Assembly: GCA_965114465.1 (NCBI GenBank) | Contig: CBCOYO010000003.1 | Span: 677 to 57,444 of the forward strand | Direction of reading: 5' to 3' | DNA from: an uncultured Lachnospiraceae bacterium | GTDB lineage: Bacteria > Bacillota > Clostridia > Lachnospirales > Lachnospiraceae | DNA length: 56,768 nt | Shown here: in pieces, positions 1-46,132 of the stretch | Layout: the number at the start of each line of letters is the position of its first letter | Numbering within the stretch: position 1 is the stretch's first letter | The notes under the pieces: model-generated | Database searches by the model: none | Told to the model about the DNA's origin: nothing | The model's input: the letters and a program-made list of their open reading frames with translations, nothing else | Program-made: the position numbers and the translations under genes

Positions 1-45
1 ATGAGTCCTGTAAGCCTTGATTTTAGCGGCTTGTGAGAGGATACC
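1..45 (+). promoter_or_regulatory. Repeat-proximal part of CRISPR array 1 leader (truncated by window edge)
   Basis: Identical to 1796-1840, which precedes the first repeat of array 2; degenerate repeats lie at the opposite end. Confidence 0.85.
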
Positions 46-746
46 GTAGAAATGGTTGTTACCCGATTAAGGGAATTGACACACAATTGTTACATCGTAA
101 TTAGTGTTTTTGCATTTGTAGAAATGGTTGTTACCCGATTAAGGGAATTGACACACTCATCTGTCGGAGCAATCACTTTTACGGCAAGCTGGTAGAAATG
201 GTTGTTACCCGATTAAGGGAATTGACACCTTTCTTCTAATTCTCCGTTTATCTTTTCTCTAAGACGTAGAAATGGTTGTTACCCGATTAAGGGAATTGAC
301 ACTAAACTGTTTTTCGGGTTGTTCTTAGGGCTTCCATATCGTAGAAATGGTTGTTACCCGATTAAGGGAATTGACACGAGCCTTGTTTCTATGAACACAG
401 ACAGGAGTACGCAAAGTAGAAATGGTTGTTACCCGATTAAGGGAATTGACACACTACAATTATTTTTCTACTTGTTGGCATAGGTAACGTAGAAATGGTT
501 ATTACCCGATTAAGGGAATTGACACAAAGACGTTTCTGCACTACTCTTGAAATAGGTTACAGTAGAAATGGTTGTTTCCCGTTTAAGGGAATTGACACAA
601 AAAATCTGCAGCCTCTTCGCCTGTAATATTGGCAGAGTAGAAATGGTTGTTTCCCGTTTAAGGAAATTGACACAAACTCCTCCTTTTCATATAAAATGTG
701 CAATGCGCTGTAGAAATGGATGTTTCTCGTTTAAGGGAATTGACAC
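46..746 (+). CRISPR. CRISPR array 1: 10 repeats of 37 bp (GTAGAAATGGTTGTTACCCGATTAAGGGAATTGACAC), 9 spacers of 35-38 bp
   Basis: Repeats start at 46,118,192,266,341,416,489,562,637,710; 3' ATTGACAC handle; last four repeats drift in sequence. Confidence 0.98.
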
Positions 747-1227
747 AAACAAGACTGTCCCTTGTACATAAAAGAAAGAAAAGGATAATTTATTATAAAA
801 AATCCATAATTAAATGTCATGAATCTTCTTGTCGAGCAAATATTCATTTCGGCAGTTTGTGAATGGATACTTTGAAATAGATTTTCCCGAAGGAGGAAAT
901 TGTCACAGGAGAATAATTTAAAATCTATTGATCAAATTAAGACTTAGAAGCGTTATTAAGTAATTTATATACTATGATGCAGGAGGCAAAAGGTCAATTT
1001 TTAATATAACTGTTGTGAAATTGCATAACAAATGAATTGAAAACATATTCTAATCAATACATCTCAAGCTTATTTTTGTTGAAATTGTATAACTCCTTTT
1101 TCTAAAATACCCCTTTGACCCCAACATTAGGTCATGAAATAAATGTTCAGTTAAGCACTTTCACAATTAAATTCTGCAATTAAATTTTCAAAATCCCTAT
1201 ATTGATAGGAACTGTTCAAAATATATA

Positions 1228-1840: not shown

Positions 1841-2248
1841 GTAGAAATGGATGTTTCCCGTTTAAGGGAATTGACACAGGTTGATGTCTACTATGGCACA
1901 TGGCCGCTTTCCGGTAGAAATGGATGTTTCCCGTTTAAGGGAATTGACACAACTAGCGAATTTGATTAGTGGATCATAATAATCCACGTAGAAATGGATG
2001 TTTCCCGTTTAAGGGAATTGACACATCAATTTCCAAGATGTATATCCCTGACTGCATTACACGTAGAAATGGATGTTTCCCGTTTAAGGGAATTGACACA
2101 CTATTTTAGCTGATTGCCTATGCTTCAAGAACCAAGTAGAAATGGATGTTTCCCATTTAAGGGAATTGAAACTTTTTTCCACTTCCTCTTTCGAGTATTT
2201 TGCCCTCATTAGTAGAATTGGTTGTTACCCATTTAAGGGAATTGACAC
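1841..2248 (+). CRISPR. CRISPR array 2: 6 repeats of 37 bp (GTAGAAATGGATGTTTCCCGTTTAAGGGAATTGACAC), 5 spacers of 36-39 bp
   Basis: Repeats start at 1841,1914,1988,2063,2136,2212. Confidence 0.97.
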
Positions 2249-2500: not shown

Positions 2501-3346
2501 ATGATAAAAGTGAAGAAAAAAACAAATCTTATAACACCCATATTGCTAATTATACTATGTTGTTTACTTATTATTATTTCTTATATGTGTTATCACATAG
2601 ATCAGATGTATCAAGAGTTCGAAAAAAATATACACACGCAGAATTTACATTATCAGTCAGAATCCCAGACAGAATATACCCAGACAATAGACTTTTTAGA
2701 AAATGAAATTGCAAAATACAGAGAATTTGTAGAAAAACAACAGGACTACCTAATAAAGATAGTGAGCATGATTGGTGTTATATTAACTGCATTGTTTGGT
2801 TTTTTTGAGATTAAGGGGAGAAAAGATATTGAAAATATGATACAGGAACAATATACCGATCAGGTTGAAACAGAAATATCAAAATTTATTGGTGGAAATG
2901 AAAATAAAAAGTATCTGGATAAATGTATTAAAAAAGAGCATGATGCTAAAAACAAAAAGATATTATTTTTGCTGCAGCAGAGTGAAAGCAAAAATCTTAT
3001 TGAAGTATATGATATTTTAAAAAATCAGCAGTATCAGGTTGAAAAGAAAAAAGTTAGAGGAAACGTTAAAAACAGGGAAATTGATAACTTGGTAGCCGAA
3101 TATGATATCATTATTTATCAGGTAGATGAAAAAGAATGCAAGCAACAAGGGTTTGTTCCTGACGAAAATGTTGCTTATGCAAGAATTGCGGATAGATGCA
3201 ATAATAATAGAGTATACGGCATATTGTATTGTGATAGATTTGGCGGGCTTGAACCAAATCTATATAACCAGTATTTTTATATAAGTGCTGCCAATTATGG
3301 TTTGACTGTAATGGAACGAATTGTAAATCTGTTAAATATTATATAG
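2501..3346 (+). CDS. Membrane protein (2 TM + coiled coil) with C-terminal REC/NARF-like domain; candidate Cam2-like type III effector
   Basis: Hydrophobic segments near aa 10-32 and 83-102; alpha/beta C-terminus KKILFL...YDIIIY...SAANYGLTVMERIVNLL; ends 11 bp before cas10. Confidence 0.6.
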   Translation: MIKVKKKTNLITPILLIILCCLLIIISYMCYHIDQMYQEFEKNIHTQNLHYQSESQTEYTQTIDFLENEIAKYREFVEKQQDYLIKIVSMIGVILTALFGFFEIKGRKDIENMIQEQYTDQVETEISKFIGGNENKKYLDKCIKKEHDAKNKKILFLLQQSESKNLIEVYDILKNQQYQVEKKKVRGNVKNREIDNLVAEYDIIIYQVDEKECKQQGFVPDENVAYARIADRCNNNRVYGILYCDRFGGLEPNLYNQYFYISAANYGLTVMERIVNLLNII

Positions 3347-3357
3347 GAGAAAGTGAA

Positions 3358-5577
3358 ATGGGTGAATTAATATATGAAACGATTCTTGGTGCAATGATAT
3401 CAGAATTGCCATTAATGACAGGCGCTTCCATAACAGAATTTCTTTCCAAATATGAAACACTATTTGCTAGGTACGTAGATTATATTAAATTAAAACAACT
3501 TCTTGAGGAGTCAGAACCTGCGGAAAATTGGGGTATTATTTGCAGGGCTAAGGAACTGGCTTTAGGTGATTGTATAGAAGGAAGCAATCATAGCCATCCC
3601 CTGTGTAGCATTTTCTCAAATTTAAGTTTAAGAGGCAAATATCCGACAAAGATGTATTATGAAACAGCTGCATTAAATATGAAAAGCACTATTCCATGTT
3701 GTGAAAATAAGAACTTTGATTGCCAAAAACTCATGAACGATTTTAGCAAGGAATTAGAAATGTTAATGTGCTCCTCACCAAAAGAATTTGATTCTTTTCT
3801 GGTCGTTATGGATACATTGCTAAAAAAGTATTTTTGGTGTATTCCTGCCAGTGGAAAACAGTTCGAGGATGTTTCGCTTTATGAGTATATCAGGACAACA
3901 ACAGCGATAACTGCTGCACTGATGAAAGCCGGACAAAAAGACGTACCATTTGTCATGGCAGCGGGACATTTTTCTGGAATACAGAATTATATATTTTCTG
4001 TTTCAAAAGTAGGGACTGGAGGTGTGGCTAAAAGACTCCGTGCACGTTCCTTTTATGTAAACGCTATGGTCAGTGCTTTGGCACATTGTATAATACATAA
4101 GTCAGGTCTGCCGATGGTGAATATTTTGATGCTGACAGGCGGAAAGTTCTATCTTCTATTACCTAATACAGATGATATTGACAACCTGCTTAATAAAGTG
4201 GAACAACAAGTATCCGTATTTTTATATGAAAAATTTAAGGGCAATCTCTCAATGGAACTTGTATGGGAAAAAGTAACAGATAACGACACACGAAACTATA
4301 GTAATACAATTGTAATGTTATCAAAAAAAATAAATGGCAAAAAGAACAGGTTGTTGGAGAGTATATTAATTAGTGGAGAAGAATGGCAGACAAAGCGGTT
4401 TGTTGTCTATCAGGATCTGGCTCATAAGTCTATGTGTTCTTCATGCAGGAGTGCACTTGTAGAGAGTGACCAGAACATATGCCCCAATTGTGAGGTCGAT
4501 ACAGAAATTGGCGGCAGACTGCCAAAGATAAGGATGTTCTCTTTTAGCAGGAAAAGAGGTCAGTATAAGTTGCTGGATGATTACTATCTAAATCTGGAAA
4601 TAGATGCAGGCGGGGAAGAAAACTATTTAATTATGCTGTTAAATGATCCGGATATAAATGGTATGTATGATAAGCCCGTCATAACCTATTATGGGGTAAA
4701 CCATGTTCCTACAAAAGAACATGGGCAGGTAAAGACTTTTGGTGAGATTGCAGATGAAGCAACAGGAAGTAAAAAACTCGGCATTTTAAAAGCAGATGTG
4801 GATACACTGGGATTTTTGTTTTCCGAAGGATTGCGGGACGATAGCGGGGATGCGGTATCAATTTCGAGGGTTAACACTTTGTCCCATATGCTTGAATTAT
4901 TCTTTGGCGGCTGTTTACAGGATCTGATAATAAACAGATACCAAAATGTATATTGTGTTTTTTCTGGTGGGGACGACCTGTTTTTTATTGGTCCATGGAA
5001 CGAGATGCCTGCCCTTGCAATTGATATTAATGAAAAATTCCATACATATACGGGAAATAATGAGTGCATGACCCTGTCAGCAGCAATCTGTATGGCAGAA
5101 AGCGGAGGGCATATATCCACTTTGGCAGAATATTGCGAAGAGAAACTGAAACAAGTAAAAAAGGAGGCAGATGAGAAGATATCTTCAAATAAACAGGGCA
5201 GGAATGGTGTATATTTTCTTGGAAAAGTGATGTCATGGGAAGATTTTAAGGAACAGATTGACTGTGGCAGAAAGTTTGCAGATGCCATAACAAATACTGG
5301 CTCATCAATGATAAAACGGCTTGCAAATTATAGTAGTATGTACCAAAAGTATTTAAACAATAATGATCCGAATCAATTAATGTTTCTTCCGATGTTTTCA
5401 TATGACATGGCAAGAAATAGCGAATCGTTGAAAAAGGATAAATGGCTTCAGGATTATTGCAAAATATTATATAAGAATGCATCCGATTATTATAGAACAG
5501 ATAAAAATTTTTATTATGTGGAGTTTTGTGTAAAGTATGCACTTCAGTTAACAAAGGAGGTAAGGAAGATTGAATGA
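3358..5577 (+). CDS. cas10: Cas10/Csm1, type III-A large subunit
   Basis: FSGIQNYIF, LRARSF, KADVDTLG and SGGDDLF palm motifs; CxxC...CxxC; DVSLYE motif. Confidence 0.97.
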   Translation: MGELIYETILGAMISELPLMTGASITEFLSKYETLFARYVDYIKLKQLLEESEPAENWGIICRAKELALGDCIEGSNHSHPLCSIFSNLSLRGKYPTKMYYETAALNMKSTIPCCENKNFDCQKLMNDFSKELEMLMCSSPKEFDSFLVVMDTLLKKYFWCIPASGKQFEDVSLYEYIRTTTAITAALMKAGQKDVPFVMAAGHFSGIQNYIFSVSKVGTGGVAKRLRARSFYVNAMVSALAHCIIHKSGLPMVNILMLTGGKFYLLLPNTDDIDNLLNKVEQQVSVFLYEKFKGNLSMELVWEKVTDNDTRNYSNTIVMLSKKINGKKNRLLESILISGEEWQTKRFVVYQDLAHKSMCSSCRSALVESDQNICPNCEVDTEIGGRLPKIRMFSFSRKRGQYKLLDDYYLNLEIDAGGEENYLIMLLNDPDINGMYDKPVITYYGVNHVPTKEHGQVKTFGEIADEATGSKKLGILKADVDTLGFLFSEGLRDDSGDAVSISRVNTLSHMLELFFGGCLQDLIINRYQNVYCVFSGGDDLFFIGPWNEMPALAIDINEKFHTYTGNNECMTLSAAICMAESGGHISTLAEYCEEKLKQVKKEADEKISSNKQGRNGVYFLGKVMSWEDFKEQIDCGRKFADAITNTGSSMIKRLANYSSMYQKYLNNNDPNQLMFLPMFSYDMARNSESLKKDKWLQDYCKILYKNASDYYRTDKNFYYVEFCVKYALQLTKEVRKIE

Positions 5578-6016
5578 TTTATTTACTGAGTACGAAGAAT
5601 CTTTGAAAAAGGGGTACTTTAAATTAGTGGATGGGAAAAAGTGTCTAAAGGAAGAATTCATTGTGAAATATCCCAAAAGGCTCGCTGATGAGTTGGCATA
5701 TGACAGAAGGGACAAGCGAACATTTAAAAATAAGAATAAAAACAAGTTATCTCAAATCTGGAAATTTTATGACCATGCAAGGTGGATACAGGATAGTCTG
5801 CGTCTGAGAGGGGAACCTTTAGATGTACTGAAAGCGACACTGTATGAACTTATGCCTGCTGCTGCCTATGCATTGGAAAGAGCTACGATAACTGATGATT
5901 TCAGGGAATTCATAGACTTAAATGTTTCTAATATAAAAGATAAGGAAGATTTGGATGCGTTTGTAAAACATTTCCAGTCATTGATTGCATATTTACCAAG
6001 AGAGAATTCAAGATAG
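5570..6016 (+). CDS. csm2: Csm2 small subunit
   Basis: SQIWKFYD...FVKHFQSLIAY helical pattern; overlaps cas10 stop. Confidence 0.9.
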   Translation: MNDLFTEYEESLKKGYFKLVDGKKCLKEEFIVKYPKRLADELAYDRRDKRTFKNKNKNKLSQIWKFYDHARWIQDSLRLRGEPLDVLKATLYELMPAAAYALERATITDDFREFIDLNVSNIKDKEDLDAFVKHFQSLIAYLPRENSR

Positions 6017-6027
6017 GGGGATAAAAG

Positions 6028-6726
6028 ATGAAATTAGATAAGATAGTTACATTTTCTGGAACAATTTTCTGTGTTTCAGGGCTGAGTATAGGAGCTTCTT
6101 CAAACACATTAGAAATAGGTGGAATCGACAGGGAAGTGATCAAAAATCCAATTACTAAAGAACCGTATATACCTGGTTCCAGCCTAAAGGGAAAAATGAG
6201 ATCAGAACTGGAAAAAGAATATGGTGCTTATACAATAATTAAAGAAACAAAAAAATTGGGATTAAATAGTAAAGAACCTTGTGGGTGTGGCAGGATTACA
6301 TGCCCTATCTGCCTAATTTTTGGCGCACATAAGTACCAAGGCGCACCTTCTGCACCAACCAGGATTATTGTTCGGGATGCCACCCTTTCAAAAGAGTCCA
6401 AAGATATCATCAGTAAACTTCCAGATGACCAAAGAGGCTATCTGGAAAGGAAGACGGAAAACATTATTATAAGAGATTCCGGAACTGCTGGTTCACCGAG
6501 AACAATAGAAAGAGTTTCGGCTGGAATGTCTTTTGACTTTGAAATTATCCTGAGAGTTTTCGAAGGAGATAACGAGAATAAGTTGATTGATAAAGTAAAA
6601 GAGGGCTTGAAATTAGTAGAAAAATCCTATTTAGGCGGAGGTGGTTCCAGAGGTTCAGGGCAGGTAAAATTTAACTATGAGATTACCTGCACGCAAATAC
6701 AAGACAAAGATAATAAGTCTGTCTAA
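6028..6726 (+). CDS. csm3: Csm3 (Cas7) RAMP RNase
   Basis: IGGIDREVIK (catalytic Asp), PYIPGSSLKGKMRS, YLGGGGSRGSG. Confidence 0.96.
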   Translation: MKLDKIVTFSGTIFCVSGLSIGASSNTLEIGGIDREVIKNPITKEPYIPGSSLKGKMRSELEKEYGAYTIIKETKKLGLNSKEPCGCGRITCPICLIFGAHKYQGAPSAPTRIIVRDATLSKESKDIISKLPDDQRGYLERKTENIIIRDSGTAGSPRTIERVSAGMSFDFEIILRVFEGDNENKLIDKVKEGLKLVEKSYLGGGGSRGSGQVKFNYEITCTQIQDKDNKSV

Positions 6727-6737
6727 GAGAGGATAAC

Positions 6738-7679
6738 ATGAGTTTATATAAAATTAAGATAGAACCTGAATCCTCCTTTTGTTCCCCCTTACAAAGCGAT
6801 ACTTTTTTTGGTGCATTCTGTTGGAGTTATTTATATCAATGTGGAGAACAAGCTCTGAAAGAACTCCTTTACCGTTATAAAAACGGAATTCCAGACATTA
6901 TTTTTTCTAATGCATTTCCAAGTGGTACATTGCCGCTTCCAGTTGGGATAAGCCAATTAAAAAAAAGACAGGATGATTTGCGCACAAAACAGGAAAGATA
7001 TCAAAAATATATAGAAAATAAGAATAAGGAGAACTTGTCGTATATTACACTGGAGGATTTTAACAGGATTATTAACGGATCTTTAGAACATTCTGATACT
7101 GTAAAGGATACCGAAACCAAAGCAATGTTGTGGCGAAACATGGTAAACCGCGAAACGAATACAGTGGAAAATATAGAGGGGAACAGTAATCTGTTTGAAA
7201 TAGAAGAAACTTTTTCGACAGAGGGATTTGATATTTACATTTATTCCACGCTTGAAAAAAAGATTTTAGAAAGTACATTAAGAGAGATGTTCATGTCCGG
7301 AATCGGAGCACAGCGTTCTATCGGCAAAGGAGCTTTTAAATTACTCGGTGAATTGGAATTATTTGAAGGTTTTAAAATTCCGGAAAAACCAAATGCATTT
7401 GTGGCACTCTCTAATTTCGTGCCTGGAAAAAGTGATCCAATAAATGGTTACTATAAAACGTTTGTAAAATATCCAAAAATCAGTTACACTTCATCTGAAA
7501 CGGATTCGCCTTTTAAAAAACCATTGATATTTTTAAAGGCAGGCAGCGTATTCTTTGCGCAGCCCGTTAAAAGATTTTATGGATCATGTATAGAAAAGGT
7601 TGCATTAAAGGCTGGAACGGTATCTGACGAAATAGTGATAGGCGCATATACAGTTGCCATTCCATGTTATTTGGAATGA
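6738..7679 (+). CDS. csm4: Csm4 (Cas5) RAMP
   Basis: LQSDTFFGAFCW, FSNAFP, GIGAQRSIGKGAF, KAGSVF. Confidence 0.93.
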   Translation: MSLYKIKIEPESSFCSPLQSDTFFGAFCWSYLYQCGEQALKELLYRYKNGIPDIIFSNAFPSGTLPLPVGISQLKKRQDDLRTKQERYQKYIENKNKENLSYITLEDFNRIINGSLEHSDTVKDTETKAMLWRNMVNRETNTVENIEGNSNLFEIEETFSTEGFDIYIYSTLEKKILESTLREMFMSGIGAQRSIGKGAFKLLGELELFEGFKIPEKPNAFVALSNFVPGKSDPINGYYKTFVKYPKISYTSSETDSPFKKPLIFLKAGSVFFAQPVKRFYGSCIEKVALKAGTVSDEIVIGAYTVAIPCYLE

Positions 7680-7682
7680 TGA

Positions 7683-7786
7683 TATACTAACGACCGTTTA
7701 GATTTTCCAATTTCTGCACAGCCCATATTGCATAGGCGGGCAATACGTGCTGTGCAGAAAGGAAAATCTAATCGCTCGTAAGTATA
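7683..7786. mobile_element. 104-bp palindromic MITE/REP-like element, family B
   Basis: TATACTAACGA...TCGTAAGTATA ends, long internal inverted repeat; same-length copies at 14992, 30709, 35466. Confidence 0.85.
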
Positions 7787-7821
7787 ATATTAGCAAATTT
7801 ATAAGAGGTTGCAGAACAGAT

Positions 7822-8781
7822 ATGGATATAGAATTATTTAATGCGTTGCAGGTACGTTTCATAAAGTTACATTTCACAGTGGCATTTTGTGGGGATTCTG
7901 TTCTGCCAAGAGATAAGGTGTCTGCTATCCGAGGCGGCATAGGAGAGATGCTTTTACGTATGAATTGTGTTCGTGACAGACAATGTGAAACATGCGATTT
8001 TGAAAAAGAGTGTACAGTACAAAGAATCTTATACTCCAAATTTGATAGCAAGCCGGATTTTGTTACAACGGATGGAGGTGTAGGATATGTTCTTGAATGT
8101 GAAAATTACCAAGAACAATTTAAAGATGGTGAAAAGCTGAACTTCTATTTGATATTGTTTGGTAAGACAATAGTTCACTTTTATCAGTTATATCAGGCGA
8201 TATCCATGCTGGGCGAACTGGAAGGGCTGGGAAAATATCATGCAAAATACCATGTTATTGGAATAAAAAATATGGAGGGCATGTCTGTTTTAGATGGAAA
8301 AACAATTGACATGGACAGGTATGTAGTGCATATGCTGTATGATTATATTATATTCCGGAATATGCGGTGTGGATCGTCTAAAGGAAGAAAAGATGCCATC
8401 TTAATTTTTGATACTCCTCTGGCTTTAAAATATCAAAACGAATTTATTAAAGAATTCCAAGTGGAAGCAATATTGAAATCAATTAGACGTAGGATTTATA
8501 TTTTGAACTGCTTCGAGGGAAAAGACAATGATATCTTTTATCAGTATGAGGACAGTTCTATGCCAAAGATTCTCAACCAAGAGCATCATGAGGTAAGCGT
8601 TAGTCGCTATTCTATGAGAAAAAATAAAAAAATGATTTTAAAAGGCATAAGGGGTACCGTATTACTAACAGAAATAACAGAAGATGTATTGATGCTCTTA
8701 ATGATAGGTGAACTGATACATATAGGAAAATATACGAGTTTTGGATTTGGTCGATTTCACTTGAAATTTGTGGATTTATAA
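7822..8781 (+). CDS. cas6: Cas6 crRNA-processing endoribonuclease
   Basis: C-terminal Gly loop IHIGKYTSFGFGRF; IRGGIG and Cys cluster near N-terminus; ATG at 7822 preferred because the longer ORF starts inside the MITE. Confidence 0.92.
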   Translation: MDIELFNALQVRFIKLHFTVAFCGDSVLPRDKVSAIRGGIGEMLLRMNCVRDRQCETCDFEKECTVQRILYSKFDSKPDFVTTDGGVGYVLECENYQEQFKDGEKLNFYLILFGKTIVHFYQLYQAISMLGELEGLGKYHAKYHVIGIKNMEGMSVLDGKTIDMDRYVVHMLYDYIIFRNMRCGSSKGRKDAILIFDTPLALKYQNEFIKEFQVEAILKSIRRRIYILNCFEGKDNDIFYQYEDSSMPKILNQEHHEVSVSRYSMRKNKKMILKGIRGTVLLTEITEDVLMLLMIGELIHIGKYTSFGFGRFHLKFVDL

Positions 8782-8835
8782 AGCTCTGTGTCATACAAAA
8801 TTATTTACTTGAATAATGGAATTGATATAAATAAC

Positions 8836-8932
8836 GGGCTGTCGCAATAAGCTGTGATGATACAAAATATTATATAAACCGCAGCATGGTATTATGCTAT
8901 CTTGTATACTTTTCCCTTAATGCTGCAGCCCC
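8836..8932. mobile_element. ~98-bp MITE/REP-like element, family A (GGGGCTGTCGCA...TGCGACAGCCCC)
   Basis: Terminal inverted repeats and inner ATACAAGATA/TATCTTGTAT stem; about 9 copies in window. Confidence 0.85.
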
Positions 8933-8942
8933 ATTCCCTTCC

Positions 8943-11099: not shown

Positions 11100-12716
11100 T
11101 TACGGAAGTAAAAGCCTTTGTCCATAAAGAATGTTATTTGGGTCTTCAATTTTATTCCATTCGCAGATTTCATCTACCTTAGAATAGTCACCATAAACCT
11201 GAAAACATATGCTGCGAAGCGTATCACCGCGGCGTACAATATAATACTGTGGTGTGGAAGCAGGGGCTGCGTTTGCAGTTTCAACTCCGTCTTGTCCAGC
11301 CAAATCCGCACTTTGCGCAGTTTCGGCTGAGCCTGCTGCGTCTTGCGAATCGGCTGACGCATTATTATTCTGTACATTTGTTTCGGTACTTTGCTGTGTG
11401 CCGGATGCCTGTCCCAATACTGCCGCATTGTCCTGTGCTTCTACTCCGGCTGGCTGTTGTGCTGCGGGATTATTTTGAACATTTGTTTCCGATTTTGATG
11501 GTAACGTTCCTGTATTGCCATTATTTTGCGGCATTCCGTCTGCGGAACCTGTTATATTATCCGCATTTCCGTTCTGCGCATCTGCGAAATCTGCCATATT
11601 GTCAGCATTTCCGTTCTGCGGCATTCCTTCTGCGGAGCCTGTTATATTATCGATATTTCCGTTCTGCGGCATTCCGTCTACCTTCGCCGTATCTGTGCCT
11701 GCGTTTTCCGCCGCTTGTCCGTTTGCTGTAGCTCCTTCTTTTGGATTCTCTTGTATATTACCTGCTGAATCTGCATTCTGCCCCTCTGCCGCAGTTTGTG
11801 CATGATCTGCATTTTCCCCAGACAAACCGCCTTGACTTGCATTTTCGGCATCGGTTTTCTCAGCCTGTCTGTTTATCTCACCAATCTGCTGTTTTTCCTC
11901 CCCATTTAATGCCGTTGCAATCGCTGTAGCATTTGTTAAAACAGCCTCATTCTGCTTTAAACTCTCTGTTACCAGCGCCAGACAATAATCAATGGTATCC
12001 TGCATACTTTTCATTTTATTGTAATTATTCACGGAAATAATGCCATATGCCATTACGCAGACCACAAAGCCAAGACACAGCGCACTCATTACATTCCAAA
12101 TAAAGCTGACTTTTGCCTCACCGCGGTTATATGCCTGTGCGATCCTGCCATAACGCACCGCCTCATCCGTTTCCGCACGCACCTGCGCACCACGTCGCGG
12201 AGGTCTTGTCTGTGCCTCTGCCTCCTCATAGCTTTCAGACGCTGCCTCCTGTGCATATTCTCCTTCTCCCTGCTGTCTGACTAAATGGGAATTTAAGTTC
12301 CATTCTATCAAATAGTTCTGCATTTCTTCATTTTGGTCGTAATAAATATAAAAGTCGTCCAAAATAACGCTTGTATTTTTCAGCGCGATCTCCAAGCGCA
12401 GCCCTGATTCTTTATTTACACCAACCTTCGCATTCCCCAAAAAAGCACAGCTTGGGAAATATCGAGTGCCTTTATCCTCAGGAAACGGCTGCTGTGCCGC
12501 GCCTGATACCACAAGAATGCTTGAGCCCTCTTCTTCATAGCGTCTGCCAAAAAGAGCAATCTGTGTAGGACTTGGTGCATTTACATAATACGCCGCTGTA
12601 AATTTCTTAATAAAAGTATGCACATAGTCTTCAAGATACAGTATGTATATGCCCTCGGGAGTCCCTATAGTACGTGTGTTTACTGGAATCTGTGATCCAT
12701 TGTTTTGCTTGTCCAT
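11100..12716 (-). CDS. Membrane protein with low-complexity linker and C-terminal LysM domain
   Basis: YIVRRGDTLRSIC...IEDPNNILYGQRLLLP; YLEDYVHTF N-terminus; GMPQNGN repeats. Confidence 0.85.
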   Translation of the reverse strand: MDKQNNGSQIPVNTRTIGTPEGIYILYLEDYVHTFIKKFTAAYYVNAPSPTQIALFGRRYEEEGSSILVVSGAAQQPFPEDKGTRYFPSCAFLGNAKVGVNKESGLRLEIALKNTSVILDDFYIYYDQNEEMQNYLIEWNLNSHLVRQQGEGEYAQEAASESYEEAEAQTRPPRRGAQVRAETDEAVRYGRIAQAYNRGEAKVSFIWNVMSALCLGFVVCVMAYGIISVNNYNKMKSMQDTIDYCLALVTESLKQNEAVLTNATAIATALNGEEKQQIGEINRQAEKTDAENASQGGLSGENADHAQTAAEGQNADSAGNIQENPKEGATANGQAAENAGTDTAKVDGMPQNGNIDNITGSAEGMPQNGNADNMADFADAQNGNADNITGSADGMPQNNGNTGTLPSKSETNVQNNPAAQQPAGVEAQDNAAVLGQASGTQQSTETNVQNNNASADSQDAAGSAETAQSADLAGQDGVETANAAPASTPQYYIVRRGDTLRSICFQVYGDYSKVDEICEWNKIEDPNNILYGQRLLLP

Positions 12717-12868
12717 TTTATCCTACCTTTCTTTGCGCCGTATATTATTATCGCAGTTCCCTAATATCATAGCACACGCAGGATAATAATTTTGTCGAAA
12801 CAATGATGTCAAATCACAAAAAAAATCGAGTGGCATGTTTCCTCTGCATCAGTGTGTACACAAAACAA

Positions 12869-14968: not shown

Positions 14969-15160
14969 TATACTTACGAGCAGAAATTTATTATACTCAC
15001 AAACGATTCGATTTTCCTTTCTGCACAACACATATTGCTCACTTATGCAATATAAGCTGTGCAGAAATTGGAAAATCTTAATGGTTGTTAGTATATATCA
15101 CACAAAATAATTACGCTCGTGAATCGACATAATTGGCAAACTTAAGCATTCGCCATTATA
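14969..15160. mobile_element. Family D element with a family B element (14992-15095) nested inside
   Basis: Removing 14992-15095 restores TATACTTACGAGC...TTACGCTCGTG...GGCAAA...TTCGCCA, like 40774-40864 and 46935-47025. Confidence 0.75.
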
Positions 15161-30821: not shown

Positions 30822-31502
30822 TTAATCCATTTTAGAAATATAGACGATTTCCCGAAATTTCTCTTTACTTTGCAGCGCTTCCTCCAACAGTCCCAGCCGT
30901 TGCAGAGATACATAAACTGCGGCCGCCTCTGCTTGGCAGTTTATGGATTTTTGTGGATTAAACTCAATATCCGTAAAAGCATCATATTCTAGTATCTGCG
31001 CTGCAAGCGCTTTCGACTGCGCCAAGGCATTAATATATATCCAATTATAAAATAATGTTTTCGGCTCTGTTGCAAACCTTTCTCCATTATGTTCAAACGC
31101 AACAATTTTGCCGCTCGTGCGCAAGCGTTCGTCCTTTTTGGCGGCTCTTGGCGATGCTTCCAACAAATCACGGTAAGGGCCGCCGTTCTCAAAGACTTTA
31201 CCTGCTTGAAAAGCCGATTCCACCGTATATTCTTTCCCTTCCGCTGTATGAAGCATTAAGTGAAATGCACTTAAACTTACCCCCAAGTCCTCCTCCGATC
31301 TGCTGGAAATCTCCAATACCTTTTTATCGGGATTTCCTTCCAAAAATGCTTGATGCAGACTGCGGATACTTCTTTTTTTCTGTTGGTCAGAAAATCCGCT
31401 GAAAAATTCAAATGTAGTATCTTTCCGCAAACACAGCATATAACAGTCCGCATTTATCTGGTTTCTATTTTGTATTACTTCAAATATGGGTCTTACTGCC
31501 AT
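30822..31502 (-). CDS. NADAR-like protein of the DarT1-associated antitoxin type
   Basis: MAVRPIF, VLEISSRS..LGVSLSAF, VESAFQAGKVF.NGGP, FYNWIY, FTDIEFNP.KSINCQA. Confidence 0.7.
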   Translation of the reverse strand: MAVRPIFEVIQNRNQINADCYMLCLRKDTTFEFFSGFSDQQKKRSIRSLHQAFLEGNPDKKVLEISSRSEEDLGVSLSAFHLMLHTAEGKEYTVESAFQAGKVFENGGPYRDLLEASPRAAKKDERLRTSGKIVAFEHNGERFATEPKTLFYNWIYINALAQSKALAAQILEYDAFTDIEFNPQKSINCQAEAAAVYVSLQRLGLLEEALQSKEKFREIVYISKMD

Positions 31503-31521
31503 TTTATCCCCCCACTATCGT

Positions 31522-32190
31522 CTACGTCGTCGACACCAATCCCTTTAAATCCAATCCTGCAAATAGATTTTCGATAGTAAATCCGCTGCTGCTTTCCTCG
31601 CCGGAAATTGCATTCTGGTAATAGGGATTTAGTTTCAATTCTGGTTCTGTCTGCATTTTTGCAAATAAAAGCGCAGTATTGTAGGCATCTACCAGCCCAT
31701 CATGCGCACCATCTTCGTAGATAATATTCGCAGCAATCAATGCCTCCGCCAAGTTATAACATTTTGAATTTTTCATTTTCTCGCTAAATATTTTCTGGCA
31801 GTCAATCCAATTATCCAGAATGGCATCAAAGCCCTCAATATGGATATTTTTCGCCTCAATTTCATGGCGGATTTGCATTTCATCATTTTCACTCCACGAA
31901 ACAAGCTTTACCTCCTCTGGAAGCCAGTCCACAAACCGTTGCAACGCTTCTTTCATTAACGGAGCATCCTTAACATCATTTCTATGGATTCCTGTAAGAT
32001 TGCTGATAAAGTTATCTATATATCCATACTGCGGTGAAACATATGTAACAAATTTCTCCTTGATTTCATAGGAATCATCTAATAAAACTGCCCCGATTTG
32101 AATGGTTTCATGTGAATATGGATATTTTCCCTTCTTGGCTTCGTTTGGAACCTTACACATTTCCAGGTCAACTACTGCATATTGACTCAT
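31522..32190 (-). CDS. DEDDh 3'-5' exonuclease (KapD/ERI-1-like)
   Basis: VVDLEMC, ETIQIGAV, LTGI, AHDGLVDA. Confidence 0.88.
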   Translation of the reverse strand: MSQYAVVDLEMCKVPNEAKKGKYPYSHETIQIGAVLLDDSYEIKEKFVTYVSPQYGYIDNFISNLTGIHRNDVKDAPLMKEALQRFVDWLPEEVKLVSWSENDEMQIRHEIEAKNIHIEGFDAILDNWIDCQKIFSEKMKNSKCYNLAEALIAANIIYEDGAHDGLVDAYNTALLFAKMQTEPELKLNPYYQNAISGEESSSGFTIENLFAGLDLKGLVSTT

Positions 32191-32354
32191 AATTAACACC
32201 CCTTTCCGCAATGCCACAGCGGGCATTGTCCTTCGTATATCAAAAATATAGCCGCCAACATTCTTAATTTTTACATACATTTACTCTACCACACATATAC
32301 ATATGTTTCAAGTTATATGTGGATAAAAACGAAAAGGGGTGTAATTGTTAAATA

Positions 32355-35866: not shown

Positions 35867-36904
35867 CTACAATTTTGTAGGAATTAAAAAATTAATTGTA
35901 AAAGTAGTCCCCTGTCCAAATTGGCTGTCCACGGTAACAACACCGTTATGCGCTTCAATAATCGCTTTTGCCAATGGCAGCCCCAGCCCAATTCCTTTTG
36001 TATCCTTAGAATAACGGCTGCGATAGAAGCGTTTGAAAATATGATGCAAGTCCTCCGGATGAATGCCGCTGCCATTGTCTTTAATTGTAATTTCAACTAC
36101 AGAAGGCAGTGCTTTCCAGCAAATCCAAATCTTATCACCAGCATTTGTATGATCCAGTGCATTTTTAACAATATTATTAACCGCTTCCATAATCCAATCA
36201 CGGTCACAGCAAAACGGAACGCTGTCCACACCGGATAAAATCAATTCTTTCTGCTCCTGTCTGGCACGAAAGGCAAAATGCAGTTCCACATCCCGCAGAA
36301 TCTCCGCCACGTTCTCCATATTTTTTTCAATTACAATCGCGCCGGCATCAAGCCTTGTTATTTTCAACAGATTTTCCACCAATGTTTCAATGCGGTCAAG
36401 TTCCTGCTCCGACAATCGTGCAAACTCTTTTATTGCTGGTAAATCTTCTGCCTCATCCTGCAAAAGTCCATTATAAATATTTAACGCTGCAAGCGGTGTT
36501 TTCAGTTGATGGGATATATCCGATATGGTATTTTTCAGAAATTCCTTTTCCCGCAATTCCTTTGCAGCATGCGCATTTAAAATCGCTGCCAAAGTATTCA
36601 CTGAATGAAATAGTTTGTACATCTGCCCCTCCATATCACACGCAATCCGCGCGTCAACATTTCCGTCAAGATAGGCATTTATCTGTGAAACCGCATTTTC
36701 CATAACTCTATTTTGCTTGTTAACATACCCCAAGCAGACAGCCCAAACACCACATGCTGCCAGCAAAATAAGCACCAGCAGCCAAACAGAAAATATTTGG
36801 CAGCACAACAGCAAAAGCCCCTCCGCAATAAAAAGAAAAATCCCGAAAACAACCCCTGTCGCAAGGAATAACCGCTTAATATCCTTATCCGCAAATAATC
36901 TCAT
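35867..36904 (-). CDS. Sensor histidine kinase
   Basis: ISHQLKTPL, NIVKNA, DNGSGI, GIGLGL. Confidence 0.96.
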   Translation of the reverse strand: MRLFADKDIKRLFLATGVVFGIFLFIAEGLLLLCCQIFSVWLLVLILLAACGVWAVCLGYVNKQNRVMENAVSQINAYLDGNVDARIACDMEGQMYKLFHSVNTLAAILNAHAAKELREKEFLKNTISDISHQLKTPLAALNIYNGLLQDEAEDLPAIKEFARLSEQELDRIETLVENLLKITRLDAGAIVIEKNMENVAEILRDVELHFAFRARQEQKELILSGVDSVPFCCDRDWIMEAVNNIVKNALDHTNAGDKIWICWKALPSVVEITIKDNGSGIHPEDLHHIFKRFYRSRYSKDTKGIGLGLPLAKAIIEAHNGVVTVDSQFGQGTTFTINFLIPTKL

Positions 36905-36913
36905 AACAATGCC

Positions 36914-37612
36914 TCAACACATTACATTCCATTTATAACCCATACGCCGCACCGTTAACAACATCTGCGGATCGCTGGGATTGTCCTCTACTTTTATCCG
37001 CAGCCTGCGTATATATACGGTTAACGCACTATTGTCAATATAGTTCCCCTCGCAGTCCCACAATTTATCTAAAATCTGCTCTTTTGAGAGCACAACATTA
37101 GGATTCTGCATAAAAAAGCACAGCAGTTTATATTCTGCTGCTGTTAATTCCAATAATTCTCCATTTTTATATGCCTGTCCTTGGAGCAGCAGTACTTTAA
37201 TTCCATTGGAATGCAGTTCGGATTCTGCGGATTGGAAGTCCTTTGCACGCCGCAGCAACGCATTTATCCGTGAAATAAGCACACCCAGTTTAAACGGCTT
37301 CGTAATATAATCATCCCCGCCGATATCCAACCCCATAATAATGCTTGTTTCCTCATCGGATGCTGTTAAAAAAATAATCGGCACTTTAGAAATCTGCCGC
37401 ACCTTTTGACAAAAGGCAAAGCCTGAACCATCCGGAAGCGATACGTCCAAAACCAACAAGTCAAATCGAATGCTAGGCTTTCCCTCTGCCCAAAGTGCCT
37501 CCGCATCTTTTATGGTTCTTGCAACCTCCAACGCATATCCCTGCTTCTGAAATGCAAAAGAAAGTCCATTTATTAAACTTAAATCATCCTCTAACAGCAG
37601 TATCGTATTCAT
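36914..37612 (-). CDS. OmpR-family response regulator
   Basis: LLEDD, LDVSLPD, DDYITKPF, winged helix. Confidence 0.96.
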   Translation of the reverse strand: MNTILLLEDDLSLINGLSFAFQKQGYALEVARTIKDAEALWAEGKPSIRFDLLVLDVSLPDGSGFAFCQKVRQISKVPIIFLTASDEETSIIMGLDIGGDDYITKPFKLGVLISRINALLRRAKDFQSAESELHSNGIKVLLLQGQAYKNGELLELTAAEYKLLCFFMQNPNVVLSKEQILDKLWDCEGNYIDNSALTVYIRRLRIKVEDNPSDPQMLLTVRRMGYKWNVMC

Positions 37613-42253: not shown

Positions 42254-43738
42254 TTACGCTGATATTTTCCGATACCGTTCGCTGTTTACCACTTTCATCA
42301 TAAGTTCATAAGGTGTTGTTCCGATATTTTCCATAACATCCCGAAAAATATTTGTCGAGTATCCAGATACCAAAGAAACACTATTGTCATTTCTTGCCGC
42401 ATGGAATGTTGCATTGGCGGCGTTTACATTCCAAAATACAACCTGCGGAATGGAGTAGCCTGCCGCTTGGTATCTGCGTTTCATTTCCTCATAAAATGTA
42501 ATGCGCTGCCCTTGTATTCCTTGCACACAATCAATTTGCATATCAGATATTACGATTATCGCCATTGGCATTTCACTTGGTTTCACACCACCAGAAACTG
42601 CTGTATGAAGCAAAAGCGCAAATCCAGCTTCAAGGTTGGTACTGCCGCCCCAAGGCGCACTTTGCAAAATCCGAAAATTATCAAGCAATGTTGTGCCATT
42701 TAGCATAATATATCTTGGTGCGCTTTCGAATGTCATAAATAAATCTTTCAAACTACCTTTATTGCGCTGTGCAAAATACATTGCCAAAGCAGACGCCACA
42801 ATGCCCGGCTTTACGCTTCTATGCGCATACCTACTCCACATCGATCCAGATGTATCACACATCACAAGTACATTTCCAGTACACAAATCAGGCAGCCCAT
42901 TCCACATTACCTCTAAATCTGGCGTATATTGGTTATTTTTATGGAGTATATTAATAATATCACAAGGATTTACTGCTGCCATATTTATTTTTTCTTTTCC
43001 TATGGCAGCATTTTTCAAATAACGCTTCCACCGTAGGCTGTCGTGTGCCGCTATTGCCTTTCTGTTCTTTAATAAAAAACGGGAACTGCACTTTGCGTAT
43101 TCTATTTCATTCCAATTTCCGGCACACATTTTCGCTTCTGGAATATCAATATACCGCCGCAGCGCTCGCAGTTTTTTCTTATATTCACGCATCGTCTGAA
43201 ACGAATATCCTAATTTTTGTGCTGTCAGCAGCCCTAATTTTTTCGTTTTCTCAACAGCGGAATCTGGTGTCGCAATCCATTTTGCAAGCAGTGACACGCT
43301 TTTTCCCTGTTGCATCTGCGCAAAATCCAGTTCAAACTGTTCCTTGCAAAATGCCCACATCGCCGCTTCGGCAGGCGTGCCAATCAGGCAGTATAAATCC
43401 TTCGCATAACCAAACTCCAAAACCGCCCATAAATTTTTACTGACAGAATCCGTATTGATATACGCAAGTGCCCTTAGCATCTGTTGAAATGTACTGCGTT
43501 CCCCATAACCGCCGCGGATATCCCGTGTATAAAATAACAACTTTACTGCAATGTCCGCATCTTCCTGAAACGCCTTAGAAAACAGCAATTCCTTTTCCTC
43601 TGCCTTTGCGTTGCGCATTGCACCGGAACGTGCAAACATATCCAAGCAGTTAGAGCCTGTTACAATTTTTGCATCTGCCCCCTTCGATGTCTTTCCCCAT
43701 GACATAGATTCTATAATAGACGCTCGCAGCCGATTCAT
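42254..43738 (-). CDS. DUF2828-type protein: helical (TROVE/Ro-like) region plus vWA domain
   Basis: LFYTRDIRGGYGER, SLLAKW, MIDAS DTSGS, WGGSTNL, VISDMQ, VFWNV, LVSGYS. Confidence 0.8.
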   Translation of the reverse strand: MNRLRASIIESMSWGKTSKGADAKIVTGSNCLDMFARSGAMRNAKAEEKELLFSKAFQEDADIAVKLLFYTRDIRGGYGERSTFQQMLRALAYINTDSVSKNLWAVLEFGYAKDLYCLIGTPAEAAMWAFCKEQFELDFAQMQQGKSVSLLAKWIATPDSAVEKTKKLGLLTAQKLGYSFQTMREYKKKLRALRRYIDIPEAKMCAGNWNEIEYAKCSSRFLLKNRKAIAAHDSLRWKRYLKNAAIGKEKINMAAVNPCDIINILHKNNQYTPDLEVMWNGLPDLCTGNVLVMCDTSGSMWSRYAHRSVKPGIVASALAMYFAQRNKGSLKDLFMTFESAPRYIMLNGTTLLDNFRILQSAPWGGSTNLEAGFALLLHTAVSGGVKPSEMPMAIIVISDMQIDCVQGIQGQRITFYEEMKRRYQAAGYSIPQVVFWNVNAANATFHAARNDNSVSLVSGYSTNIFRDVMENIGTTPYELMMKVVNSERYRKISA

Positions 43739-43776
43739 AATAATACCCCTATTTTTTCTTAACAATTTTTTTGAAA

Positions 43777-43848
43777 CCGCAGGAAAGCGGATACCCTTTT
43801 TAACAATTTCAAGTTGTGTTTAGAAGGATGGATACCCATAGCCTGCGG
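43777..43848 (-). ncRNA. Short hairpin RNA sharing the terminal stem motif of the adjacent Y-like RNA
   Basis: CCGCAGG-CTAT-GGGTATCC-ATCCTTCTA...GGGTATCC-GCTTT-CCTGCGG. Confidence 0.7.
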
Positions 43849-43854
43849 CTTATA

Positions 43855-43981
43855 CCGGAAAGCAGGTTTTCTTTTTGCAGCGCCTCTGCCACTGGGCCAC
43901 GTTTGGCGAACCAAACGGTCGGAATCGAACCGACGACTCTCTGCCCTGATCATGGATAGAAGGAGGAAAACCCATAGCCGG
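43855..43981 (-). ncRNA. Circularly permuted tRNA mimic, YrlA-type Y RNA architecture
   Basis: Long terminal stem; T arm GTCGG-TTCGATT-CCGAC; acceptor hairpin CGTTTGG-TTCG-CCAAACG; D arm TGGCCCAGTGGCAGAGGC. Confidence 0.85.
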
Positions 43982-43996
43982 ATAATTTTAATAATT

Positions 43997-46132
43997 TTAT
44001 AGATATTCCGCCATTATGACATCTGTGTCATAAGGTGTAATGCCGTCTTCTTCGTCAAAAACAATATCTGCCTGCGCTTTATCATAGCACTGGATGCCTC
44101 TGGCACAGATATGCAGATAAATCAATTGATATAGATTGGTTTTATGCATATTCACCATTGCATAGCTGGCAAGTTCTACACCGGATAAATTGGATTCCAC
44201 ATTATTGCCGCCATAATGTGAATGCACTGTGCCAAGGTTTACGTCGCACCAAATTATCTGGCGTGTTAAACAGTCAAAAATCACTGGAACACAAATGCAG
44301 CTCTGTGCAGTCAGGTCAATTTTCTGCTTAACAAGCGCCGGCTCATAGATCTCACCGCTGTTCACATCATGCCGTTCCATAAATCCAAAAGCAGCGTGCC
44401 CAAGTTCCGAAAACTTCTGGCGGGTATAAGAATATACTTGATAAACAATATACCTGCCGCCGTATTTTATTACACTGTTGATATCCGTATCCAGAAACTC
44501 GCTGACCCCCTCCGCCTGATACGGGCCGCCGTCCACAATATCTCCCGAATGACACGCTTTATACTTTTCTGAACGCAGATTCGTATAGGAAACGTGTTCT
44601 AAATAATGAAAGTTTTCATCAAGGATCAATGCCGACAAATCAAGGTCAACCCGTTCGCCGCTCTCCGTATTTGTCCACCAGATAAAACCACGGATTGCCC
44701 GTGCGCCTCCCTTTATCGAGATCCGAGAACCACGAACTAATGTATGCGCCGCTTTTGACGCAGAACGCTGATTAAACGGTACAATATAGTTTTTCATTTT
44801 CTCCGACAAATAAACTTTTCCCATTGCTTCCTTCTGGGCAAATCGCTGTATCAGAGCACGCTCACAAATCGCAATAGCATGCTCACAAAGTTCCTCTTTT
44901 ATATCCACAAGCGGTTCAATAATCCGGCCGTCTGCCATATTTCCCTTTGGAAAATAATAACGCAGTGCGCCACCGTTGCGATAGCGGAAATGCTCCCGCA
45001 CTTGCAGCAGCACCGGAACGGATACCTCTGCCGCCACATCTTCCCAAGCCGAAAGTACCTGCTTATGACTCTCGGGCAATTCGTCCAACCGCAGCAAATG
45101 ATCCAGACGCCTTGCCAACTCACCAGGACGGTTTCTTAACAGTTTTAACGCACTTGTCACGTCCTTTGCTTTGATTGCATCAGCAACACTCCCCGCAAAT
45201 GTGACAATCCTTTCTCCATTGCGCAATTTCGCAAATACCCGCTTTACACGGTCATACTTACCGTCTGGATATTCGCCGGGATGCAGCCGCTCACCAAGAC
45301 GTTTAAAGATTTCCGCTCTGGCAGCCATTCCCTCCTCTAACCCTGACGCATCGTTTAACAGTCCCATCAACAGCCTGCGCACGGGTCTGGAAAAGCTGAT
45401 AAATCTTGGCGGCTCTGCTAAACTGACATCACTGTCAGAAAGTGCCGCTGCCAAACGCAGCACATCCGTTGGCGTCTTAAAATAGGGGTTCAATGCTTCC
45501 GCCAACGTTTCCGTTTTAGCAAGCGGATATTTTTCTATGTAACATTTGCCCATCCATGCTGCATTTTCCTTAATCGGAATACTATCCGGAATATACATAC
45601 AAATTCCGCCCAAATTCGCAAAGCACCATGCAATATCTTCTTTATCCTGTAGCGACAAAGAACTTTTAGCAGACAATAAATTTTGAAATAAATCTATTGC
45701 TTCCTCCCTGCTGCCCAGCGTTAATACCTGACAAGCAGCAATATCCGTTAACACTTTCCGCTCCGCTTTAAACGAAGTTGGCATCATTGTTCCATTGCTC
45801 CAATAATGCACCAACGCATTGAGATACAACCTGCCCGCCGGCGCCGCCATAACCTCCATAGGAAAATTCCGATACATGGGACGGTACTTAAGATCAGCGC
45901 CTTTGCTCTTTTTCAAAAGTTCAACCAATTCCCAACATAGCCGTCCAAGCTGTTCCGTGGAATAGCGTAAAAGTTCCTCATATAGTTCTCGCGAAAATGT
46001 ATAGCCAAGCGGTTCAATATTTTTCATTAATGTCGCCACTGAAAGGTCATTGAGTGCGTTCCTTTGCGTCATATTTTCTTTTTCTTCCATAATCCATATT
46101 TTATTTTTTCTCAATAACATCTCACATACCAT
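43997..46132 (-). CDS. Large helical protein with C-terminal TerD-like domain (possible divergent TROVE/Ro-like)
   Basis: PMYRNFP.EV, TPTDVLRLA, RPGELARRLD.LLR; TerD-like VDLDLSA...HSGD...EFLD. Confidence 0.65.
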   Translation of the reverse strand: MVCEMLLRKNKIWIMEEKENMTQRNALNDLSVATLMKNIEPLGYTFSRELYEELLRYSTEQLGRLCWELVELLKKSKGADLKYRPMYRNFPMEVMAAPAGRLYLNALVHYWSNGTMMPTSFKAERKVLTDIAACQVLTLGSREEAIDLFQNLLSAKSSLSLQDKEDIAWCFANLGGICMYIPDSIPIKENAAWMGKCYIEKYPLAKTETLAEALNPYFKTPTDVLRLAAALSDSDVSLAEPPRFISFSRPVRRLLMGLLNDASGLEEGMAARAEIFKRLGERLHPGEYPDGKYDRVKRVFAKLRNGERIVTFAGSVADAIKAKDVTSALKLLRNRPGELARRLDHLLRLDELPESHKQVLSAWEDVAAEVSVPVLLQVREHFRYRNGGALRYYFPKGNMADGRIIEPLVDIKEELCEHAIAICERALIQRFAQKEAMGKVYLSEKMKNYIVPFNQRSASKAAHTLVRGSRISIKGGARAIRGFIWWTNTESGERVDLDLSALILDENFHYLEHVSYTNLRSEKYKACHSGDIVDGGPYQAEGVSEFLDTDINSVIKYGGRYIVYQVYSYTRQKFSELGHAAFGFMERHDVNSGEIYEPALVKQKIDLTAQSCICVPVIFDCLTRQIIWCDVNLGTVHSHYGGNNVESNLSGVELASYAMVNMHKTNLYQLIYLHICARGIQCYDKAQADIVFDEEDGITPYDTDVIMAEYL

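Follow-up and report, generated by a model that had tools for sequence, protein, structure and literature searches.

The window analysed here, a stretch of 56,768 nucleotides from an uncultured Lachnospiraceae bacterium, carries near its start two CRISPR arrays and a compact type III-A cassette in the order effector, cas10, csm2, csm3, csm4, cas6 (Table 1). The candidate effector gene lies 11 nt upstream of cas10, and both this gap and the six-gene order bear out the earlier note, which took the ORF as the first gene of a cas operon and tightly coupled to cas10. Matches of cas10, csm2, csm3 and csm4 exceed the NCBIfam cut-offs, and that of cas6 exceeds the Pfam cut-off. Neither cas1 nor cas2 was found in the cassette, and the only cas1 found in the genome belongs to a type I-C-like locus on another contig (C10).

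Table 1. Features of the type III-A locus (positions in the window)
Feature	Position	Strand	Description
CRISPR array	46..746		10 repeats of 37 nt
CRISPR array	1841..2248		6 repeats of 37 nt; ends ~250 nt upstream of the effector gene
Candidate membrane effector	2501..3346	+	281 aa: TM1, helical linker, TM2, helical stalk, flavodoxin/receiver-like (NARF/Cam2-type) domain
Hydrophobic helix 1	2528..2584	+	effector residues 10-28
Hydrophobic helix 2	2750..2806	+	effector residues 84-102; conserved F65/E69/R74/F76/E78/Q80 stretch just before
C-terminal flavodoxin-like domain	2951..3343	+	effector residues 151-281; conserved Y260, N265, T269, E272 at predicted three-copy interface
cas10/csm1	3358..5577	+	739 aa; TIGR02578, 497.8 bits; no HD motif; His204 for palm-1 Asp; DxD (480/482) and GGDD (537-540) intact
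Codon for His204	3967..3969	+	aligned to Lactococcus lactis Csm1 Asp253
csm2	5570..6016	+	PF03750, TIGR01870
csm3	6028..6726	+	TIGR02582; Asp34 and Ile30 at positions named for Serratia Csm3
csm4	6738..7679	+	TIGR01903; cas6 directly next, no csm5
cas6	7747..8781	+	PF10040; likely start ~7822, from L001 and L002

The absence of csm5 and the palm-1 Asp-to-His replacement in Cas10, neither of them in the earlier note, are the more unusual features of this cassette. csm5 was found in none of five cassettes (window, L001, L004, G012 and L115) versus all 19 ordinary III-A loci; these controls were chosen from 34 genomes of the host family with a Csm1 match, and four of the 19 supplied the queries. 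Similarly, the csm5 profile TIGR01899 gave nothing above its cut-off in G000, G855, G012, G196 and G877, the completeness of four of which is 80%, 95%, 98% and 99%. The loci without the gene include a relative with 63% Cas10 identity and a sister-clade locus carrying Csm6. The latter (L115, 5142-11672, on G196:C38) is ordered cas10-csm2-csm3-csm4-csm6-cas6 and has neither csm5 nor HD, together with a palm-1 Asp, a different cas6, cas2 and different repeats. This sister-clade cassette suggests that the loss of csm5 predates the effector, and the Csm6 effector that it keeps implies that signalling works without Csm5.

Several repeat families surround these genes. A dispersed palindromic repeat occupies 7683-7789, between csm4 and cas6, with copies near 14991, 30708 and 35465; it is absent at that place in L001 and so does not account for the loss of csm5. 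Copies of a second family, found at 8822-8934, occur across the window. Three small arrays (window 1-973 and 1796-2475, and G000:C3:1-576) share duplicated leader-like and trailer sequences, for instance with 1-83 duplicated at 1796-1878 and 797-973 at 2298-2475, one of them across an N gap, and a fourth array on C103 has five related repeats with no cas genes among the ORFs read. Between the two arrays of the window, an 89-aa ORF (1228-1497) gives a weak CcdA-like match (E 0.008) and is possibly the remnant of a HicB-type antitoxin or regulator.

The HD motif is absent from the window Cas10 and from 119 of its 120 nearest clusters, and is present in 27 of 30 control loci. In L. lactis Csm1, Asp253 is a Mg ligand of the acceptor ATP triphosphate (PMC13294483). 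His takes this palm-1 position in 55 of the 56 nearest Cas10 clusters (one has Tyr), and Asp is found there in 62 of the next 64 clusters and in all 30 controls. The His-palm group forms one clade (SH-aLRT 100 in a quick tree of 46 chosen rows). Of its clusters, 54 extend far enough to cover the GGDD motif and 53 of these retain it; one member, P0210, has a decayed palm-2 motif. In the window Cas10, the intact DxD and GGDD are accompanied by a Trp seven residues after GGDD, a feature noted in PMC13737744.

The likely signal can be approached from residues of the nucleotide pockets. The acceptor site of the window Cas10, read by eye from a pairwise alignment, comprises His204, Gly262-Lys263 and Lys329 (the K379 position) and is basic, whereas Cas10 proteins that make SAM-AMP have acidic or neutral residues there (B. 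fragilis D70/E151; III-D2 E8/Q186). P. furiosus Cmr2 and 9L7C carry Lys at the position equivalent to His204 (alignment read by eye), so ordinary ATP use is consistent with a non-acidic residue here. The basic site and the Lys of P. furiosus Cmr2 together make SAM-AMP unlikely, and do not imply an inactive site. Helix-17 positions are reported to set ring size, with an aromatic residue favouring cA5/cA6 and a bulky basic residue typical of cA4 makers (PMC11734703, partial text). The window Cas10 aligns Ile318 and Ser322 to these positions, neither aromatic nor bulky basic, and its predicted product leans towards cA3/cA4.

The effector itself has two hydrophobic helices, linker helices and a flavodoxin/receiver-like C-terminus, which confirms the TM-helical linker-TM-receiver-like architecture described from the ORF alone. 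In its structure model, built with an alignment of 118 of the 119 dereplicated relatives (A2; mean pLDDT 90.4), two long helices carry the hydrophobic segments, and the model further comprises a stalk and, at residues 151-281, an alpha/beta domain of five strands. The earlier note had made its reading depend on a REC- or CARF-like fold; the fold came out flavodoxin/receiver-like, with receiver domains among the fold matches of the C-terminal domain, and CARF gave no Pfam match and was absent among the 50 fold matches listed. Counts of Lys plus Arg in 99 sequences, which fall from 2.9 to 1.4 across TM1 and rise from 2.2 to 2.9 across TM2, weakly suggest that both termini lie inside the cell. 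In canonical phospho-receivers, strand 3 ends with a phospho-acceptor Asp, and a conserved Lys follows strand 5. This motif is absent from the effector, which, mapped by eye, has Gln207 at the acceptor position and Ala264/Asn265 in the Lys region; column 207 of the 118 aligned rows holds Q 40, E 38, C 10, Y 9, R 5 and K 3, with Asp outside these six commonest residues.

Modelling of three copies, the only number modelled, gave a score of 0.63 versus 0.00 for the best control, and a dimer or a tetramer (cA4) would be compatible as well. In a calibration with two copies, 20 of 30 solved pairs attained the mark, as did one of 23 solved single chains. The three-copy runs share at least 52% of contacts with a partner pLDDT of at least 67, and the interface includes residues 259-262 and 265-277, with the conserved residues Y260, N265, T269 and E272. 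On these models, a homotrimer is predicted as the likely state of the effector.

A first search with the effector returned 33 clusters (36-98% identity), and a profile search returned 136 representatives. A coverage filter retained 133 of 143 sequences of 180-460 aa, and dereplication at 70% identity and the exclusion by hand of three weak matches left 119, of which 100 have two hydrophobic segments. The family is rare, as one credible additional match was found in 400 genomes of the host family. Among the 118 aligned relatives, 25 match Mem_02 (best E 2.7e-38), 14 match C3a55 and six match C3a59, while a distant relative, P0150, matches Pfam NARF at E 0.0013, below the cut-off. The first Atlas match of the effector (0.91) is a cluster in which 12% of members carry NARF; the C-terminal domain alone gave no usable match. 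The window effector itself has no direct match to Mem_02, C3a55, C3a59 or NARF PF20299 (the genome-wide NARF search also matched no control), and its link to these profiles is transitive, via relatives. The family profile aligned with the Nostoc TCL26-01 protein at 95.5% probability (E 1.5e-8), and the gene of that protein adjoins a 444-aa CHAT-SAVED gene; a narrow 31-row profile gave no alignment to an Anabaena relative (probability 0.6%). The NARF/Cam2 lead of the earlier note is thus sustained indirectly, by the profile matches of relatives and the CHAT-SAVED neighbour, and finds no direct match in the window protein. Because the latter matches none of these profiles directly, standard pipelines would call the locus effector-less, and loci of this clade are probably miscounted in this way.

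Judged by architecture and neighbours, the effector most probably belongs to the Cam2 type as a divergent member. In PMC11229360 (Hoikkala, Graham & White 2024), Cam2 is a bioinformatic prediction, for which a trimer is predicted and cA3 binding and membrane disruption are hypothesised, and the receiver fold is described as not previously associated with cyclic-nucleotide sensing. The same paper reports two loci in which Cam2 adjoins SAVED-CHAT; of its three SAVED-CHAT entries, two come from cyanobacteria and measure 438 and 441 aa. The effector likewise combines an N-terminal TM helical region with a C-terminal receiver-like domain and, with the exception of its relative in G253, occurs in type III loci with no cognate kinase. 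It differs from Cam2 as a divergent Lachnospiraceae clade with ~17% identity to the Nostoc protein and ~57 residues between the TM helices, and in its setting, a csm5-less III-A cassette with a His-palm Cas10. Mem_02, C3a55 and C3a59 (PADLOC) and NARF PF20299 also denote two-TM proteins with a globular domain near type III modules; the C3a55 and C3a59 profiles come from Shah et al. 2019 (PMC6546367, partial text), and no published description of NARF was found. Cam1 (with CARF) and Csx23 (with a different, tetrameric domain) are type III membrane effectors that respond to cA4 (PMC11229360, as above). The effector resembles both as a TM protein with a soluble sensor-type domain in a type III locus; no CARF or Csx23 match was found for it. 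Compared with canonical III-A Csm systems, as far as the available parts of PMC11734703, PMC13737744 and PMC6447361 describe them, the window shares cas10, csm2, csm3, csm4 and cas6 with intact DxD and GGDD, but lacks csm5, HD, csm6 and a cassette cas1/cas2, and has His for the palm-1 Asp.

The pairing of effector and type III genes is seen in other genomes as well. Two collection scans gave eleven loci, which reduce to four independent contexts (L004 and L005 come from the same species as the window, L006 lacks context, L002 equals L007, L008-L010 are near-identical, and L011 and L012 share a gene). L001 has the same six-gene III-A cassette with an effector of 48% identity; in L008-L010, the effector directly precedes a III-D cas10 (matched to 8S9T); in L012, it follows cas6 of an operon read by eye as III-D; and L002 has effector-cas6 with CRISPR arrays nearby in a genome with no close cas10. 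Repeats of L002, L008 and L012 belong to the same family as those of the window. For the distant relative P0150, all three plasmid matches adjoin type III genes, and relatives overall were found beside III-A, III-D and III-B genes, the distant ones in cyanobacterial type III loci. The earlier note had asked about cas10 association in other genomes; proximity to type III genes indeed recurs in III-A (L001), III-D (L008-L010, L012) and, for distant relatives, cyanobacterial type III loci. Further, seven of the 33 effector clusters have a longest contig of exactly the same size as His-clade Cas10 clusters, versus none with the 64 sister-clade clusters; this circumstantial coincidence hints that the effector and His-clade Cas10 travel together, and part of the clade may carry other effectors. 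In a close relative with 97% Cas10 identity (L145, 12800-12896, G012:C57), unrelated sequence joins ~12 nt before the effector stop codon; the genome of this relative yielded no effector, and an insertion possibly removed the gene. In L010, a 429-aa DUF4062 (TIR-like) protein is encoded after cas6 (11536-12825); it is absent from L008 and L009.

No other effector was seen among the 45 window ORFs scanned. In the genome, which is 80% complete, tblastn found no Csm6, Csm5 or CHAT-SAVED, and searches whose controls matched found no Csx1 HEPN, Card1 or AcrIII-1/Crn2; NucC and Csx3 also gave nothing in searches that matched no control. At this completeness, other effectors may be unassembled. Within the scope of these searches, the description of the ORF as the only visible type III effector holds.

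We consider it fairly probable that the effector is a cyclic-oligoadenylate-gated membrane effector, with putative gating and toxicity. Its ligand is probably cA3, a best guess that draws on the Cas10 residues and on the CHAT-SAVED gene next to one relative. Transcripts of the neighbouring arrays would be processed by Cas6, and Cas10-Csm2-Csm3-Csm4, assembled as the gene content suggests, would bind target RNA without a Csm5 cap. Having lost the HD motif, Cas10 cannot cut DNA through HD, and would polymerise ATP at the intact palm-2 site to products predicted from its residues. The pseudo-receiver domains, which lack the phospho-acceptor Asp, may bind the ring near the predicted three-fold interface of conserved residues, and the helical stalk may relay the change to the membrane helices, leading, by analogy with Cam1 and Csx23, to depolarisation and dormancy. 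Such membrane disruption would arrest the infected cell.

Among the alternatives, the effector could be a membrane anchor, regulator or signal sink, with a Csm5-less complex acting by RNA cleavage alone and a cyclase that may be weak. Loss of Csm5 abolishes crRNA maturation in S. epidermidis (PMC6447361), and with His204 a metal ligand is gone; a weak complex could result, which counts against the gated-effector reading. The absence of csm5, the lost palm-1 ligand, the intact Asp34 of Csm3 and the decayed palm 2 of P0210 would fit the alternative. We nevertheless find this unlikely, given the near-universal GGDD of the His clade, the Csm6 effector retained by Csm5-less L115, and effector relatives that also accompany the differently built III-D and III-B complexes.

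Slightly less probable is that the His204 Cas10 clade makes a non-standard signal (a ring of another size, a linear molecule or a mixed conjugate) to which the effector clade is tuned. The palm-1 His of a monophyletic clade that appears to travel with the effector would fit this, as would the pocket changes that switch Cas10 to SAM-AMP in other systems. However, SAM-AMP makers gain acidic or neutral residues where the window Cas10 is basic (Lys329), the Lys of P. furiosus Cmr2 and 9L7C fits ordinary ATP use, and the III-D Cas10 that effector relatives also accompany has Glu at the palm-1 His position. In its boldest form, which we regard as a long shot of similar standing, the cassette would represent a minimal III-A lineage in which a four-subunit complex without Csm5 or HD, through its His-palm Cas10, makes an altered or new messenger for a trimeric pseudo-receiver channel; if true, a single six-gene cassette would be new in its signal, its sensor fold and the architecture of its complex.

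Rather improbable, and somewhat more so than the foregoing, is a membrane defence gene, stand-alone or promiscuous, with a frequent place in CRISPR islands and a trigger independent of Cas10. The effector gene has a GC content of 29% versus 36% for cas10-cas6, L002 has effector and cas6 without cas10, and around the relative in G253 (E 2e-22), which has one TM, the ORFs read over 20 kb include no type III gene. Yet the gene is tight to cas10 in three independent cassettes (window, L001 and the L008 group), sits beside type III genes in distant cyanobacteria, and is the sole effector candidate beside an HD-less Cas10. The G253 relative (L079, 8302-9993, G253:C22) directly follows an HNH-like gene within a defence-like island near a type I-C locus, whose cas3 lies ~4.4 kb away. 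A true phospho-receiver under a histidine kinase is very improbable, since, despite the receiver domains among the fold matches and a two-component pair in the window (35870-37612), Asp is not among the six commonest residues at column 207, the conserved-Lys region reads A/V264 and N265, and no kinase gene is adjacent in the loci read.

The effector most likely belongs to a family that is already catalogued, and the added interest lies in the conserved csm5-less, HD-less, His-palm III-A cassette, of which a limited and narrow literature search found no published description. As the effector is the only candidate in an HD-less six-gene cassette, any signal-dependent immunity should pass through it, and the cassette offers a clean test system for effector-dependent immunity, including the proposal that Cam2-type proteins use a receiver fold as a cyclic-nucleotide sensor. 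It also suggests a natural III-A lineage working without Csm5, which caps the complex and recruits crRNA-trimming nucleases; if such a lineage works, it would provide a smaller Csm complex for mechanism studies and RNA-detection tools.

Elsewhere in the window, a DarT1-associated NADAR antitoxin gene (E 1.9e-85) lies beside a DEDDh exonuclease gene at 30825-32280, with no DarT toxin among the window ORFs scanned. At 42257-46132, a 711-aa ORF without assignment adjoins the gene of a DUF2828/DUF7788 protein (503 aa).
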